DNA from: Candidatus Nealsonbacteria bacterium RIFCSPLOWO2_01_FULL_43_32
GTDB taxonomy: Bacteria > Patescibacteriota > Minisyncoccia > Minisyncoccales > MHMH01
DNA length: 52,092 nucleotides
NCBI GenBank assembly: GCA_001819335.1
Contig: MHMH01000015.1
Span: 1-52,092 of the forward strand
Direction: 5' to 3'
Both the position numbers and the translations under genes were made by a program. The notes under the pieces are model-generated. The model ran no database searches, was not told the origin of the DNA, and was given only the letters and a program-made list of their open reading frames with translations. Positions 178 through 5,290 of the stretch are shown here, in pieces; positions within the stretch are counted from its first letter, which is position 1; every line of letters starts with the position of its first letter.

Positions 178-293
178 AAGTAGTCGTAGCCAAAAGATAC
201 TGATGTTATCGGTATTTTCTGGCTATGACTGCTTCGTTGGCAGGATTGGCCCTATAACCTCGGGAAGAGGTAAAAATTCGGCGAACAGCCGAA
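178..293 (+). promoter_or_regulatory. Structured 5' leader of the DGR target gene (long hairpin plus two short hairpins)
   Basis: 178-204 pairs with 208-234 (27 positions, 1 mismatch, 4 G-U). ACCTC/GAGGT at 257-271; TTCGGC/GCCGAA at 277-293; SD GAGGAG at 295-300. Confidence 0.6.
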
Positions 294-307
294 AGAGGAG
301 TGGAAAA

Positions 308-904
308 ATGAAGTACGGTGAACTGAATCTAGGACAGGTGGAGGCGGTGGTCAATAAGCTTGGCGGCATGGAAGGCGTGAGAATGTTTTTGGCGGGTGAA
401 TTGGTAGTTAAGGAAGCGGAACGGAAGTTTTCCACCTGGAAAACCGTCAAACTCGGGACCGGACTCAAGTCCGCCGACGATTTCCGCCGCACCCTTAACG
501 CTGGCGGAATCAAAATCAGCGATTGGGCCAACGATATTCTCGGGAAACCTGCTTTTTCGGTGGCTGCCGAGGCAACAGAAGTTGACCTAATTAAGGTCAC
601 GGTTGCCGAACTCGGTTTCAAGAAGGGTGCCCGGCGCGACCAGATCTACGAACGCGCCAAAGAGCTTGGACTTCAACTTTGTCCGCCAGAAGTCGGCCCG
701 CAGTTGCGTCTGCAGTACCAGGACCAGCCGAATAACGAGTGGATTCTCGTCGGAATGGAACCGATTGCCGGTTCCGGTGGCAACCTGCGCGTGTTCTCTG
801 TGGAGCGCGATGGCTCGGAGCTGTGGCTCAGCGGCGATTGGGGCTATCCCGACGGTGTCTGGGGTCCTGACGATCGTTTGGCCTTCGTCTTCCCCCGCAA
901 GTAA
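308..904 (+). CDS. DGR target (variable) protein, 198 aa, C-terminal VR; CLec-like fold inferred
   Basis: ATG at 308 follows SD GAGGAG. The longer ORF start at 203 lies inside the leader hairpin. The last 46 codons are the VR. No obvious signal peptide or TM segment. Confidence 0.9.
   Translation: MKYGELNLGQVEAVVNKLGGMEGVRMFLAGELVVKEAERKFSTWKTVKLGTGLKSADDFRRTLNAGGIKISDWANDILGKPAFSVAAEATEVDLIKVTVAELGFKKGARRDQIYERAKELGLQLCPPEVGPQLRLQYQDQPNNEWILVGMEPIAGSGGNLRVFSVERDGSELWLSGDWGYPDGVWGPDDRLAFVFPRK
764..900 (+). repeat. DGR variable repeat (VR), 137 bp
   Basis: Ungapped alignment to 1259-1395 with 18 mismatches, all opposite TR adenines. Confidence 0.97.
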
Positions 905-967: not shown

Positions 968-974
968 CGGTAAA

Positions 975-1016
975 GCCCTCTCTCGTTTCGTAATACGAGA
1001 GAGGGCCTTTTATTTC
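975..1016 (+). terminator. 12-bp hairpin plus T tract after the target gene (terminator and/or DGR target-recognition hairpin)
   Basis: GCCCTCTCTCGT-ttcgtaat-ACGAGAGAGGGC (975-1006) followed by CTTTTATTT. Confidence 0.8.
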
Positions 1017-1258
1017 AACAGGGATGATTTATAATTAGAATTGGATAATAGGCGAATCTGTCCGCGGTTACGGCTTCGGGCGGCCGAATTCCGGAATTAT
1101 CGCAATGCAGAATCTTGGCGGCTACGGCTTCCAAGAGCGTCATTGATAATTTCCAAAAATAAAGATACTTGGTATAAGGCGTTAGGGTATTTTAGATACC
1201 GCATAAGATGCAGCCCCGAGAGTATTCAGGGGGCAGTGGCTTAGAAGACGCTTTATAC

Positions 1259-1395
1259 ATTACCGATTCCGATGGCAACCTGAACGTGTTCTCTGTGAAG
1301 CGCGATGACTCGGAGCTGTGGCTCAACAGCAATTGGAGCAATCCCGACAATGTCTGGAATCCTGACAATCATTTGGCCTTCGTCTTCCCCCGCAA
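1259..1395 (+). ncRNA. DGR template repeat (TR), 137 bp
   Basis: Adenine-rich copy of VR with many AAC/AAT codons; 32 adenines, 18 of them substituted in VR. Confidence 0.95.
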
Positions 1396-1411: not shown

Positions 1412-1439
1412 ACCCGTCCAATTAGAGACGGGTTTATTT
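1412..1439 (+). terminator. Hairpin 3' of TR (possible end of TR RNA)
   Basis: ACCCGTC-caattaga-GACGGGT followed by TTATTT; abuts the avd stop codon. Confidence 0.45.
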
Positions 1440-1727
1440 GAGAACCTTAATCCACCCCCCAAGCATTTTGCCGATTTCATTTAATTTTTCAGATATTAAA
1501 ATATATTTTTTATTGTCCAATGATTTTATCTCCCAAGCTATTTGCAGAAAGAATTTTAACAAATCTAATTTTACGGAAGCATTCTTAAGAGAAATAAGTT
1601 TTTCTAATTTGTCTGAATAGCTCGCTTTTATTATTAGTTCAATTGTTTCCAGAAACAAAGAATCAATTTTTGTTCCGATGGTGTAGCGGGAATCTTTTTG
1701 GAAATTAGGCAAGAATTCATGCCACAA
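1434..1727 (-). CDS. avd: Avd-like DGR accessory protein (four-helix-bundle family); true N-terminus probably extends upstream, see the G9 finding
   Basis: Basic helical protein with a RYTIGxKID segment and C-terminal EIGKMLGGW motif typical of bAvd-like proteins; lies between TR and RT; frame open to 1814. Confidence 0.85.
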   Translation of the reverse strand: MWHEFLPNFQKDSRYTIGTKIDSLFLETIELIIKASYSDKLEKLISLKNASVKLDLLKFFLQIAWEIKSLDNKKYILISEKLNEIGKMLGGWIKVLK

Positions 1728-1747
1728 TTTGTAAGCCCGAACTAGTT

Positions 1748-1784
1748 TTTGGATTAAGCTTAATCCAAAGGGGCTGGGGGGGGG
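1748..1784. repeat. Perfect 22-bp palindrome (1748-1769) and G9 homopolymer (1776-1784)
   Basis: TTTGGATTAAGCTTAATCCAAA is its own reverse complement; nine consecutive G follow shortly after. Confidence 0.9.
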
Positions 1785-1806
1785 TATTACCGGTAAAATT
1801 ATTATT

Positions 1807-2802
1807 ATGAAAATTCAATTGGCTCATAATTTCGAAGATATTGTCAGTTTGGATAATTTACTTGAGGCCTGGCCGGAATTTTTAAAGGGAAAAAGAGAGA
1901 AAAAAGACGTTCAGGAATTTTCTTTTCGCTTAATGGACAATGTCATATCTCTCCATTATGATTTAGTTTATCATATCTATAAACATGACGGCTATCAAGC
2001 GTTTAGCATTCAGGACCCAAAACCCAGGAACATTCATAAAGCGAGCGTGCGGGATAGATTGCTTCATCGCGCCATTTACCGCAGACTTTACCCGTTTTTT
2101 GACAAGACATTTATCGCCGATTCTTTTTCCTGCCGCATCGGCAGGGGCACTCACAAGGCACTGGATAGATTTCGTTTGGTTGCTTTTAGGGCTAGTGAGA
2201 ATAATACCAGAACCTGCTGGATATTGAAATGCGACGTTAAAAAATTCTTTGCCAGCATTGACCATGGCATTTTAATAAGCATCCTGCAAAAATATATACC
2301 CGATAAGGATATTTTATGGCTTTTGGGAACGGTAATAAGCAGTTTTCCCGGCCTTGGCCAGAAAACAGGACTGCCGCTCGGCAATTTAACTTCGCAGCTT
2401 TTCGCGAATATCTATATGAATGAATTCGATCAGTTCGTGAAGCACAGACTGAAAGCAAAATATTACATTAGATATGCCGACGATTTTGTTTTACTCTCGG
2501 AGAGCAGGGCTTGGCTAGGGGCGCAGATCCCAGCCATTGATAATTTTTTACAAAGAGAGCTGAAGCTTACTCTGCATCCCCAAAAAATTTCCATCAAAAC
2601 GCTTGCTTCCGGGGTTGATTTCCTCGGCTGGGTGCATTTCTCCGATTATAGGGTATTAAGAACCAGTACAAAGAAAAGAATGCTTAGAAGAATCCGAAGA
2701 CGCTCGTCCCTGTCAACAGCTAATTCTTATTTGGGGCTTTTACGGCACGGCAGTACCTATAAATTACGGGAAGAAGTTTTAAAACAGCATTTGTCGAATT
2801 AG
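1807..2802 (+). CDS. DGR reverse transcriptase, 331 aa
   Basis: YIRYADDF catalytic motif, GLPLGNLTSQLFANIY (DGR-type), LKCDVKKFF, DFLG; no maturase or endonuclease domain. Confidence 0.96.
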   Translation: MKIQLAHNFEDIVSLDNLLEAWPEFLKGKREKKDVQEFSFRLMDNVISLHYDLVYHIYKHDGYQAFSIQDPKPRNIHKASVRDRLLHRAIYRRLYPFFDKTFIADSFSCRIGRGTHKALDRFRLVAFRASENNTRTCWILKCDVKKFFASIDHGILISILQKYIPDKDILWLLGTVISSFPGLGQKTGLPLGNLTSQLFANIYMNEFDQFVKHRLKAKYYIRYADDFVLLSESRAWLGAQIPAIDNFLQRELKLTLHPQKISIKTLASGVDFLGWVHFSDYRVLRTSTKKRMLRRIRRRSSLSTANSYLGLLRHGSTYKLREEVLKQHLSN

Positions 2803-2804
2803 AT

Positions 2805-2833
2805 AAAAGTCGGCTTGGAAAAGCCGATTTTTT
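2805..2833 (+). terminator. Intrinsic terminator after RT
   Basis: AAAAGTCGGCTT-ggaa-AAGCCGATTTTTT. Confidence 0.8.
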
Positions 2834-2863
2834 ATGTTAAGATGAAAAAGTCAAACTTTATTT

Positions 2864-5290
2864 ATGAACTCTTATAATCCTCAGGAAATAGAGCGAAAAT
2901 GGCGGAAGATTTGGGAGGAAAATAAAACCTTCCAGGTTGATTTAAAACATGCCAAAAATCCCTATTACAACCTGATGATGTTCCCTTATCCTTCGGCCGA
3001 AGGCCTGCACGTGGGAAATGTTTACGCCTTTACGGGTTCGGATATCTACGGCCGTTTCAGAAGAATGCAGGGGAACGATGTTTTTGAGCCGATGGGCTTT
3101 GACGCTTTCGGCATCCATTCGGAAAATTTTGCCATTAAAAAAGGCATTCATCCCAAAATTTTAATTAAAAAAAATACTGATAATTTTCGCGAACAGCTGA
3201 AAAACCTGGGTTGTCTTTTTGATTGGGAGCATGAAGTGGATACTACCCGGCCCGAATATTATAAATGGACCCAGTGGTTGTTCTTACAGCTCTATAAGGC
3301 TGGTTTGGCTTACCGGAAAAAAGCGCCGGTTGATTGGTGCCCTTCTTGTAAAACTGTTTTAGCTGATGAACAAGTTATTTCTGGTCAATGCGAAAGATGC
3401 GATTCTGAAGTTATCCAGAAAGAAACCGAGCAGTGGTTTTTTAAAATTACCGAATACGCCGAAAAATTGCTGAAAAATCTAAATACGATTGATTGGTCGG
3501 AAAGAACAAAAATTACGCAGAAAAATTGGATAGGCCGAAGCGAAGGAGTAAATTTAAAAGAAAAGGTGAAAGGTTTAAATATTGAATTTGAGGTTTTTGA
3601 CACTGTTCCCCAAACTTTCCTTGCTCAGACTTTTACCGTTATTGCTCCAGAACATCCATTAGTTAAGGAGCTGGTAAAAAATACAAAATATGAAAAACCA
3701 GTGATGGAATTTATTGAAAAAATCAAGAGAAAAAGAATAGAGGCACCGAACGAAATAGAAAAAGATATTGAAGGGATTTTCATAGGCAGATATATTGATA
3801 ACCCCTTTGGGACGGGCGATTTACCCATTTGGCTTGCTTCTTATGTAATTGCCGGATATGGAACAGGGATTGTCAACTGTAGCGCCCACGACGAACGCGA
3901 CTTCGCTTTCGCTAAAAAATACAATATTCCTTTAAAATTGGCGATGTTACCTTCCGATAAAGAATTATCCGAAAAAGTGAAGAATTTCGAAACCTGTTAT
4001 CATCATGCTCCCGAGGGAATTATTCAAGAACCAATAGAAATGAGGGGTATGACTTGGGAAAAGGCGAGAGGGCCTATTATTGAACATATTGAGAAAAAAG
4101 GTTTTGGTAAAAGAGGAGTCAATTATCACCTGCGCGATTGGCTTATTTCCAGGCAGAGATATTGGGGTCCGCCAATCCCGATTATTTATTGCGCAAAGTG
4201 TGGCGTTGTCCCCGTGCCGGAAAAAGACTTGCCGGTATTATTGCCCGACGTTGAAAATTTCAAGCCCAAAGACACGGGAGAGTCTCCTCTGGCTTTGGTC
4301 TCGAGTTTTGTCAAAACAAAATGCCCACAATGCGGAGGGCCTGCCCGGAGAGAAACGGACGTCTCTGATACTTTCTTAGATTCTTCATGGTATTTTTTCC
4401 GTTACCCTTCGTCTGATTTTAAAAATAAACCATTTGACGAAAATATTACAAAAGAATGGCTGCCCGTTGACATGTATATTGGCGGTCAAGAACATGCTGT
4501 ATTGCATTTGCTTTATACCAGATTTATCACGATGGCCTTAAAAGATTCTGGTTTTATTGATTTTGAAGAGCCATTTAAGAAATTCCGAGCTCACGGTCTT
4601 TTGACTAAGGGCGGAGCCAAGATGTCCAAATCCAAAGGCAACGTGGTCAACCCGGACGATTACTTTAAAAGATTCGGGGCAGACACCTTGAGAATGTATT
4701 TAATGTTTATCGGTCCCTTTGAGGCGGGCGGGGATTGGCAGGATAGAGGAATTATTGGGATTTCGAGATTTTTAGAGAAAGTTTGGGCGCTCCAAAGAAA
4801 ACCAAAAACAGAAATTGAAACCCCAAAAATAGAAAATTTATTACATAAAACAATTAAAAAAGTTGACCAAGATTTGGAGAATCTTCAATACAATACCGCC
4901 ATTTCCGCTTTGATGATTTTAGTCAATGCCTTAGCAGAAATCCCGCAATTGTCAGTAAAAACCTACAAAACGCTTTTATTGCTATTGGCCCCCTTTGCGC
5001 CCCATATTGCAGAGGAGCTTTGGCGCTACTTAGAACCTGGTTCTAAACAGTCTATTCATGATCAAAAATGGCCAGAATACGACTCCGAATTGATCAAAGA
5101 AGACACGATTACCTTGATTGTGCAGGTTAACGGCAAGGTCAGGGATACTTTAGAAGTTAAAGCCGGCATTTCCGAGAGCGAGGCCAAAGAATTGACATTA
5201 AGCCAAAAAAAGGTTAAAAACTATATATTGAACAAAGAGATAAAAAAGATAATTTTCATTAGGAACAAACTTATAAATATAGTCGTATAA
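2864..5290 (+). CDS. leuS: Leucine--tRNA ligase
   Basis: MFPYPS-GLHVGN (HIGH-like), KMSKS, DWLISRQRYWG, C-terminal QVNGKVR. Confidence 0.97.
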   Translation: MNSYNPQEIERKWRKIWEENKTFQVDLKHAKNPYYNLMMFPYPSAEGLHVGNVYAFTGSDIYGRFRRMQGNDVFEPMGFDAFGIHSENFAIKKGIHPKILIKKNTDNFREQLKNLGCLFDWEHEVDTTRPEYYKWTQWLFLQLYKAGLAYRKKAPVDWCPSCKTVLADEQVISGQCERCDSEVIQKETEQWFFKITEYAEKLLKNLNTIDWSERTKITQKNWIGRSEGVNLKEKVKGLNIEFEVFDTVPQTFLAQTFTVIAPEHPLVKELVKNTKYEKPVMEFIEKIKRKRIEAPNEIEKDIEGIFIGRYIDNPFGTGDLPIWLASYVIAGYGTGIVNCSAHDERDFAFAKKYNIPLKLAMLPSDKELSEKVKNFETCYHHAPEGIIQEPIEMRGMTWEKARGPIIEHIEKKGFGKRGVNYHLRDWLISRQRYWGPPIPIIYCAKCGVVPVPEKDLPVLLPDVENFKPKDTGESPLALVSSFVKTKCPQCGGPARRETDVSDTFLDSSWYFFRYPSSDFKNKPFDENITKEWLPVDMYIGGQEHAVLHLLYTRFITMALKDSGFIDFEEPFKKFRAHGLLTKGGAKMSKSKGNVVNPDDYFKRFGADTLRMYLMFIGPFEAGGDWQDRGIIGISRFLEKVWALQRKPKTEIETPKIENLLHKTIKKVDQDLENLQYNTAISALMILVNALAEIPQLSVKTYKTLLLLLAPFAPHIAEELWRYLEPGSKQSIHDQKWPEYDSELIKEDTITLIVQVNGKVRDTLEVKAGISESEAKELTLSQKKVKNYILNKEIKKIIFIRNKLINIVV

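Follow-up and report, generated by a model that had tools for sequence, protein, structure and literature searches.

How a full-length accessory protein can be made from a gene whose start codon and body lie in different reading frames is the question raised by avd in the diversity-generating retroelement (DGR) of Candidatus Nealsonbacteria bacterium RIFCSPLOWO2_01_FULL_43_32. The window analyzed here is positions 1–52,092 of contig MHMH01000015.1, which belongs to a 552,629-base assembly in 23 contigs. The entire DGR, a single copy in this genome, lies within the first 2.8 kb of the window. Its template repeat (TR) and variable repeat (VR) form a 137-nucleotide (nt) pair with 18 mismatches, every one at a TR adenine (16 A-to-G, one A-to-C, and one A-to-T), the adenine-restricted pattern by which a DGR is recognized, and the adjacent reverse transcriptase (RT) has a match to RVT_1 as well as an intact catalytic motif (Table 1). 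Between the TR and the RT, on the opposite strand, is avd, which contains an uninterrupted run of C residues in its 5′ coding region. This run is proposed to be a conserved contingency repeat that renders Avd, and with it mutagenesis by the DGR, phase-variable, an explanation that is considered probable, albeit with considerable room for doubt.

An earlier note on this DNA had described a G9 tract at 1776–1784, an Avd frame that has no ATG upstream of a TTG at 1727 and is open back to a stop at 1817, a 36-amino-acid (aa) frame that leads from an ATG at 1827 on the minus strand into the run, and a fused Avd of 130 aa upon removal of one G; all of these proved correct. On the minus strand, the Avd frame extends without a stop from TGA 1817–1815 to TAA 1436–1434 and reads IFIIIILPVIPPPSPFGLSLIQKLVRAYKLWHEF..., and TTG 1727, its sole ATG, GTG, or TTG codon, would give a product of 97 aa. 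The open reading frame (ORF) that begins at ATG 1827 (MSQLNFHNNNFTGNTPPQPLW...) runs into C9 and ends at TGA 1719–1717, 8 nt past TTG 1727. If one C is dropped, with CCCC read as a single step, the two frames join into the 130-aa protein (MSQLNFHNNNFTGNTPPSPFGLSLIQKLV...), and the frame is broken at the tract only. Residues 25–128 of the read-through protein match positions 4–106 of the 107-position Pfam profile bAvd (PF22296; E = 2.7e-19; 70.1 bits, with a cut-off of 40), an above-cut-off match over the whole domain, whereas the TTG product covers positions 15–106 only. Thus, the domain begins upstream of the only canonical in-frame start. The Avd profile is also co-linear with the structure of BPP-1 Avd (4dwl_A), although the match is weak (E = 0.42, profile 56–130 to chain 52–126). 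The G9 run is the sole G/C run of at least nine in the genome; since ~0.9 such runs are expected by chance under independent bases, the single genome proves little, and the weight of the argument comes from the homologs.

Homologous avd-RT junctions were collected from a genome collection (80 loci, the best 80 of 277 confirmed relatives) and from a metagenome collection (80 loci, the best 80 of 304). A locus was kept if it included the N-terminal region of Avd together with 80 nt or more of upstream sequence, as 157 of 172 did; the rest were incomplete or lay at the edge of a contig. After removal of duplicates (98% identity in both flanks, one entry per tract allele), 142 entries were left, of which 110 have a divergent RT and a run of at least seven C, 6 have C6, 2 have another repeat, (CT)9 and (CA)9, 20 are repeat-free, and 4 are without a divergent RT. 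The avd start was called as the farthest ATG, a heuristic rule.

The tract was found to be conserved and variable in length. A close relative, G011, whose Avd is 87% identical, has the same divergent avd/RT layout, a C10 run, and the same one-base offset, and more distant relatives have C7, C10, C10, C13, and a (CT) repeat at the same place. Run lengths peaked at 9–10 (six runs of 6, eight of 7, 13 of 8, 33 of 9, 43 of 10, 14 of 11, and one of 15), and modal lengths of 9–10 are typical of the poly-G/C contingency loci of Campylobacter jejuni, Neisseria, and Haemophilus. Among the 110 entries with C7–C15, all of them Patescibacteria TR-(avd)-RT loci, 29 have the ATG in frame, the run is too long by one C in 57 and too short by one C in 23, and one entry has no ATG; when only unambiguous cases were counted, 25 were in frame, 48 too long, and 16 too short, with 20 ambiguous. 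By contrast, the ATG is in frame by the farthest-ATG rule in 18 of the 20 repeat-free entries; an in-frame ATG exists in 19, and the remaining one (L154) has an in-frame GTG by eye. The difference between 29/110 tract-bearing and 19/20 tract-less entries with an in-frame ATG is large (Fisher p = 5.8e-9) and persists in the strict counts (25/110 versus 16/20, p = 1.6e-6), and the in-frame share of the tract-bearing loci is alike in both collections (15/56 and 13/49). The frame state also follows the run length: runs of eight or fewer mostly need one C more (12 need +1C, 5 need −1C), whereas runs of ten or more mostly need one C less (5 need +1C, 37 need −1C; p = 2e-5), as would be predicted for lengths that fluctuate about an in-frame value near 9. 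From the tract to its stop, the Avd frame spans 111–128 open codons in 109 of the 109 entries whose stop lies inside the locus, which rules out pseudogene decay.

The position of the true start was indicated by the same comparison. The 48 natural in-frame proteins (118–141 aa) share the N-terminal pattern M.QLNFHN..PPP..F.L..IQKL, the residues that directly follow the tract line up with ones whose translation in tract-less relatives is certain, and in those relatives the first codons of the homologous ATG are antisense to the first RT codons. Judged by these alignments, the upstream ATG (1827 here) is the true avd start, and the repeat lies inside the reading frame, downstream of that start, as 19 of the 20 tract-less homologs and the 48 full-length proteins attest.

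An evenly drawn sample of the phylum gave a similar picture. This Avd clade is present in 38 of its 121 genomes; 29 loci were returned, and 25 could be scored. Eleven of these have C8–C17 (three in frame, six in need of +1C, two in need of −1C), and ten are repeat-free, nine of them in frame by the farthest-ATG rule. The other four have dinucleotide repeats, (CA)10, (GA)18, (CT)18, and (CT)8, at the same spot. The occurrence of different repeat chemistries at one orthologous site points to selection on mutability, and argues against a poly-proline function or a G-specific nucleic-acid function. In this genome CCC makes up 36% of the Pro codons, and if the three prolines were all that counted, a triple CCC would be expected in about 4.6% of cases. 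As far as such comparisons can tell, the tract is selected as a DNA repeat and not for its prolines. In another genome (G019, contig C4), three avd copies (L006, L013, and L014) each have a repeat at this spot, C10, C7, and a (CT) repeat, respectively.

At the contig level, length polymorphism yields in-frame and out-of-frame alleles on identical sequence. Three pairs of contigs, with no mismatches and no gaps over 150+300 nt of flank, differ by a single C, and one allele of each pair is in frame: L004 has C10 (out of frame) and L100 has C9 (in frame), L101 has C9 (out) and L113 has C10 (in), and L151 has C8 (in) and L156 has C9 (out). At the locus of the window, G9 was reproduced in a metagenome contig that is identical over 150+300 nt of flank (L095), and also in three runs that hold all sampled 31-mers of 1300–2300. 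A G10 allele, with an extra G behind 1775, was found in the sole tract-spanning contigs of X4 (17.3/17.3), X6 (4.7/4.7), and X12 (4.3/4.3), with zero other differences over 520–920 nt; G10 is also out of frame and needs +1C. The contigs of X5 end and start inside the tract (1784 and 1776) and do not give its length. Out-of-frame alleles recur across independent assemblies in seven clusters (L101/102/103, L156/157, L119/125, L126/128, L165/166, L031/145, and L001/L095), and random miscalls do not explain them.

A mechanism can be proposed in which the repeat, placed within the first ~20 codons of avd in the TR-(avd)-RT cassette typical of the candidate phyla radiation (CPR), would change in length one C at a time by replication slippage. 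Only 8 or 11 C here (most often 9 in relatives) would join ATG 1827 to the frame of the Avd four-helix bundle, and at other lengths translation would end in a short peptide. Through tract length, individual lineages would then randomly gain or lose adenine mutagenesis of the target gene, such that ON cells would explore VR variants and OFF cells would hold one variant. The RT of the Bordetella phage DGR requires Avd for cDNA synthesis (PMC6602519); if the same requirement applies here, tract length would switch targeted mutagenesis. Switching is presumed to be fast and reversible, out-of-frame alleles would be without functional Avd, and, by analogy with the phage, the DGR would stop when Avd is missing. 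A wider proposal was considered with less confidence, and is put forward tentatively, at slightly less than even chances: DGR hypermutation in Patescibacteria might itself be phase-variable, with a selected avd repeat that flips lineages between diversifying a surface or ligand-binding protein and freezing a variant, in about a third of the phylum-sampled genomes and with other repeat types in some lineages, and the tract, 11–38 nt upstream of the RT start, may be a master switch of the whole element that controls both the avd frame and the expression of the RT.

Several points weigh against phase variation of avd. The dependence of these RTs on Avd is carried over from the Bordetella phage DGR and may not hold for them. 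Both alleles of the present locus, G9 and G10, are out of frame, and neither G8 nor G11 was seen here among the assembled contigs. Length variation is known from assembled contigs and not as a read-level mixture in one sample, and for any single pair a short-read error in homopolymer length could be responsible. The farthest-ATG rule is a heuristic, and 20 of the 110 tract-bearing entries have ATG ORFs in more than one frame. The loci share descent, and the p-values given above overstate their independence. The excess of too-long over too-short alleles (57 versus 23 of 110) is not predicted by a purely random switch, and the even sample leans in the opposite direction (2 versus 6).

The slipped-strand switch proposed in the earlier note gained support from the conserved, variable tract in homologs, from the in-frame state of tract-less relatives, and from in-frame and out-of-frame alleles on identical backgrounds, and the homologous CPR avd-RT junctions revealed the two kinds of feature that the note had suggested looking for, a tract of variable length and a conserved N-terminus, the latter found to read M.QLNFHN..PPP. 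It had to be corrected on three points. The frameshift is not a lesion special to this copy, and is instead a family-wide feature of the CPR TR-(avd)-RT architecture. The OFF state assigned to this copy holds at the DNA level, for G9 and G10 alike, but slippage in transcription or translation could still give some Avd. The notion of a frozen VR received no support; between VR and TR there are 18 differences, each at a TR adenine.

Alternative starts would make tract length irrelevant, and none of those considered was retained. A non-canonical start upstream of the tract was rejected as a general rule: the Avd frame there holds only ATT and ATA codons in this locus, and in the G10 allele and in L007 and L009 a TAA closes that frame just before the run. 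Internal starts (ATG, GTG, or TTG) within 24 nt after the tract are not enriched among out-of-frame loci (40/80, versus 18/29 among in-frame loci), and none is present in this window. The use of TTG 1727 would remove positions 1–14 of the bAvd profile, and the arrangement is not kept in L004. Re-initiation at this TTG is conceivable in the present locus, given its distance of 8 nt from the stop of the 36-aa ORF.

Among the rival explanations, slippage during decoding survives best, although it is considered unlikely. RNA polymerase could stutter on the C/G run, or tRNA-Pro could slip on CCC-C, without any switch in the DNA; in that case full-length Avd would be made at a low, fixed level even from out-of-frame alleles, with the tract serving to attenuate expression or to sense the state of translation. 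It is known that +1 slippage occurs at CCC-C and is restrained by EF-P and m1G37, and 9–11 identical bases would let tRNA-Pro re-pair in either neighboring frame. The commonest state in the survey, one C too long (57/110), is the one that would be repaired by a +1 slip of the ribosome or by loss of one base from the transcript, but the bias of the even sample is the opposite (six need +1C, two need −1C). Slippage would also fit the finding that both alleles of this locus are out of frame, yet the VR has 18 adenine-specific changes. A programmed frameshift is marked by a fixed offset, however, and the offset here is not fixed: there are three frame states, and near-identical sequences differ in state. 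In other lineages the site is occupied by dinucleotide repeats of up to 18 units, which are not slippery sites for tRNA-Pro, and at this locus the ATG frame continues for 19 codons past the tract, with neither a stop nor a rare codon immediately behind the run. Slippage in decoding and a switch in the DNA are not mutually exclusive.

A second rival places the role of the tract on the side of the RT, where it would act mainly as a G run in the RT promoter or 5′ leader and tune RT transcription or translation, possibly besides setting the avd frame; it would then resemble spacer-length phase variation at divergent promoters, with any type of repeat able to serve as spacer. This rival is considered improbable. 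In 93 of 96 loci, 11–38 nt separate the G run from the RT ATG downstream of it (22 nt here, on the plus strand), but the distance varies, with modes at 13, 18–20, and 24. All 12 loci with a distance of 13 nt (L055, L057, L061, L063, L065, L066, L070, L071, L078, L085, L091, and L094, read in the RT sense) have TAnnAT, in seven cases TAGAAT, directly after the run, followed by 7 nt and the ATG, a spacing that matches a −10 box on a leaderless mRNA. The variable letters of TAnnAT fall on positions 1 and 2 of avd codons, a pattern more like a DNA signal than a constraint on the peptide, and a need for a separate RT promoter is suggested by the terminator-like hairpin that follows the TR. Across the survey, however, TANNNT with its last T 5–9 nt before the ATG was found in 30 of 113 loci, no more than at neighboring offsets, and a promoter scan, of little information in itself (four sites within 1150–2050, with 2.9 ± 1.6 expected), revealed no plus-strand site before the RT ATG in this window. 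A role on the RT side leaves unexplained the near-universal in-frame state of tract-less homologs, as well as the dependence of the frame state on run length. A passage of the RT frame itself through the tract was rejected: that frame is open through it in many loci, but GGG is a coding triplet in every frame, and most RT ATGs lie after the tract. Two loci are unusual at this end of the RT: in L007 (G015) the RT frame has no ATG, GTG, or TTG before the conserved N-terminal motif, and the position that aligns with the Met falls in the G run, and L069 has ATA where its relatives have the RT ATG.

A short-read miscall of the homopolymer, or an avd pseudogene in this genome, is very improbable, for although homopolymers of 9–10 are error-prone, the evidence is at the contig level, and the X5 contigs break exactly at the tract, G9 recurs in a second assembly (L095) and in three runs holding all sampled words, out-of-frame alleles are shared by independent assemblies in seven clusters, about three quarters of the 110 loci, from many studies, are out of frame, unlike random error around an in-frame length, and both the Avd frame after the tract (109/109) and the RT are intact.

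With these rivals weighed, a DNA-level switch in avd can be set beside known systems. It shares with the poly-G/C contingency loci of Campylobacter jejuni, Neisseria, and Haemophilus a G/C homopolymer of at least seven near the 5′ end of a coding sequence, one-base changes that set the frame, and alleles of different length on otherwise identical DNA; the literature compared comprised parts of PMC8355987, PMC4965091, and PMC2831843, and 29 loci with polyG or polyC of seven or more are reported for C. jejuni NCTC11168 (PMC4965091). In the known cases, what is switched is mostly a surface structure or a restriction-modification gene of a host-associated pathogen, whereas the gene concerned here encodes an accessory factor of targeted hypermutation in free-living, ultra-small groundwater bacteria. 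Unlike the known loci, the repeat is kept at one orthologous site across much of a phylum.

The DGR of Bordetella phage BPP-1 (avd-TR-brt) has the same components, namely an RT, a protein of the bAvd family, an adenine-specific TR/VR pair, and a target gene with a C-terminal VR. It differs in arrangement: in the present locus avd sits between TR and RT and is read from the opposite strand, its opening codons overlap the RT start in antisense, and it carries the repeat. No description of a repeat in BPP-1 avd was found in the literature consulted on that phage. The gene order is exactly that of architecture B3, TR-(avd)-RT, which, in Wu et al. 2018 (PMC5758913), makes up 90% of the CPR set. Within the passages of that paper on frameshift, orientation, and the CPR, nothing was found on a repeat or on a broken avd frame, its supplementary tables being outside the scope. 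Contingency loci have been described in genes of the coliphages T2 and T4, where hypermutable repeats cause reversible frameshifts as bet-hedging (preprint PMC12633550). These are alike in that repeats shift the frame within a mobile or accessory system, and unlike the present locus in that the part of the preprint considered ties them to no retroelement.

The overlap of avd with the RT invites one more comparison. Repeat tracts are also found in the spacers of divergent promoters, as in the Haemophilus hif and Bordetella fim promoters. There, as here, a repeat lies between divergently read genes and one tract could affect both; here, the coding regions overlap, the tract is inside one of them, and a promoter role is a geometric hint in a subclade. 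No publication was found, in a search largely at the level of titles and abstracts (the CPR DGR survey of Paul et al. 2017 and supplements being outside its scope), that links a DGR or avd to a repeat, a homopolymer, or a phase-variable switch. Repeat-mediated phase variation and DGRs are each well known, and, with nothing found in print, their connection appears to be new.

The regulation of cellular DGRs, and the means by which a useful VR variant is retained, are open questions, to which a built-in random avd switch, if real, would give an answer for CPR bacteria, the largest natural reservoir of DGRs. It would amount to a two-level device for evolvability, in which a mutable repeat governs a targeted mutator. 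Gene callers will report such an avd as truncated, missing, or a pseudogene, and surveys may therefore undercount Avd in CPR DGRs. For population studies, the repeat offers a ready marker by which VR diversity could be tied to the state of the switch within individual long reads; at this locus, tract and VR lie ~900 nt apart.

Table 1. Coordinates of the DGR and of the features of avd in the window.
Feature	Position	Strand	Remarks
Target gene	203–904	+	VR at 3′ end
VR	764–900	+	18 mismatches to TR, each at a TR adenine and at codon position 1 or 2
TR	1259–1395	+	137-nt repeat pair with VR
Terminator-like hairpin, then TTATTTGAGA	1412–1433	+	Between TR and 3′ end of avd
avd body, frame of bAvd domain	1434–1775	−	From just after the tract to stop TAA 1436–1434
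Poly-C tract (C9 on avd strand, G9 on + strand)	1776–1784	−	Simple-sequence repeat in avd 5′ coding region; G10 in other samples
avd 5′ segment, ATG 1827 to tract, MSQLNFHNNNFTGNT...	1785–1827	−	One base out of frame with avd body at C9
36-aa ORF of unshifted C9 allele	1717–1827	−	No Pfam match
DGR RT, 331 aa	1807–2802	+	RVT_1 E = 2e-26; YADD present; diverges from avd

Some further features of the locus were noted. The coding regions of avd and the RT overlap antisense by 21 nt (1807–1827), and the avd ATG (1827–1825) lies precisely opposite codon 7 of the RT (CAT, His) on the other strand; the resulting M-x6-H pairing is also present in relatives. The hairpin at 1412–1433 has seven pairs, five of them G-C (one hairpin found, with 0.5 ± 0.6 expected in shuffles), and, given this hairpin, the TR transcript may end ahead of the RT. 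A 15-nt inverted repeat (972–1009, plus strand; 93% complementary, with an 8-nt loop), followed by a T-rich stretch, lies 68 nt past the stop of the target gene, and could be the terminator of that gene or a hairpin of the type that is frequent downstream of VRs. In the interval from the target gene to the TR, positions 1106–1201 (plus strand) give a sub-threshold Rfam match to RT-7 RNA (RF03028; 26.8 bits, with a gathering score of 116.8; E = 0.0011), and the direct repeats GCGGTTACGGCTTC and GCGGCTACGGCTTC are present at 1064 and 1118. Among the contigs listed for X4, X5, X6, and X12, none covers the VR in full (X4 ends at 770 and restarts at 874, X6 ends at 847 and restarts at 877); these breaks were not used as evidence.

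Outside the window, the only other long G/C run of this genome is a C8 run on contig C23 (3024–3031), which is in frame and lies in the first codons of a radical-SAM-like ORF (minus strand, 2426–3064; MQDTSFCLFTPPPKGKK...CNMLCKHC), and which may be a second contingency locus.

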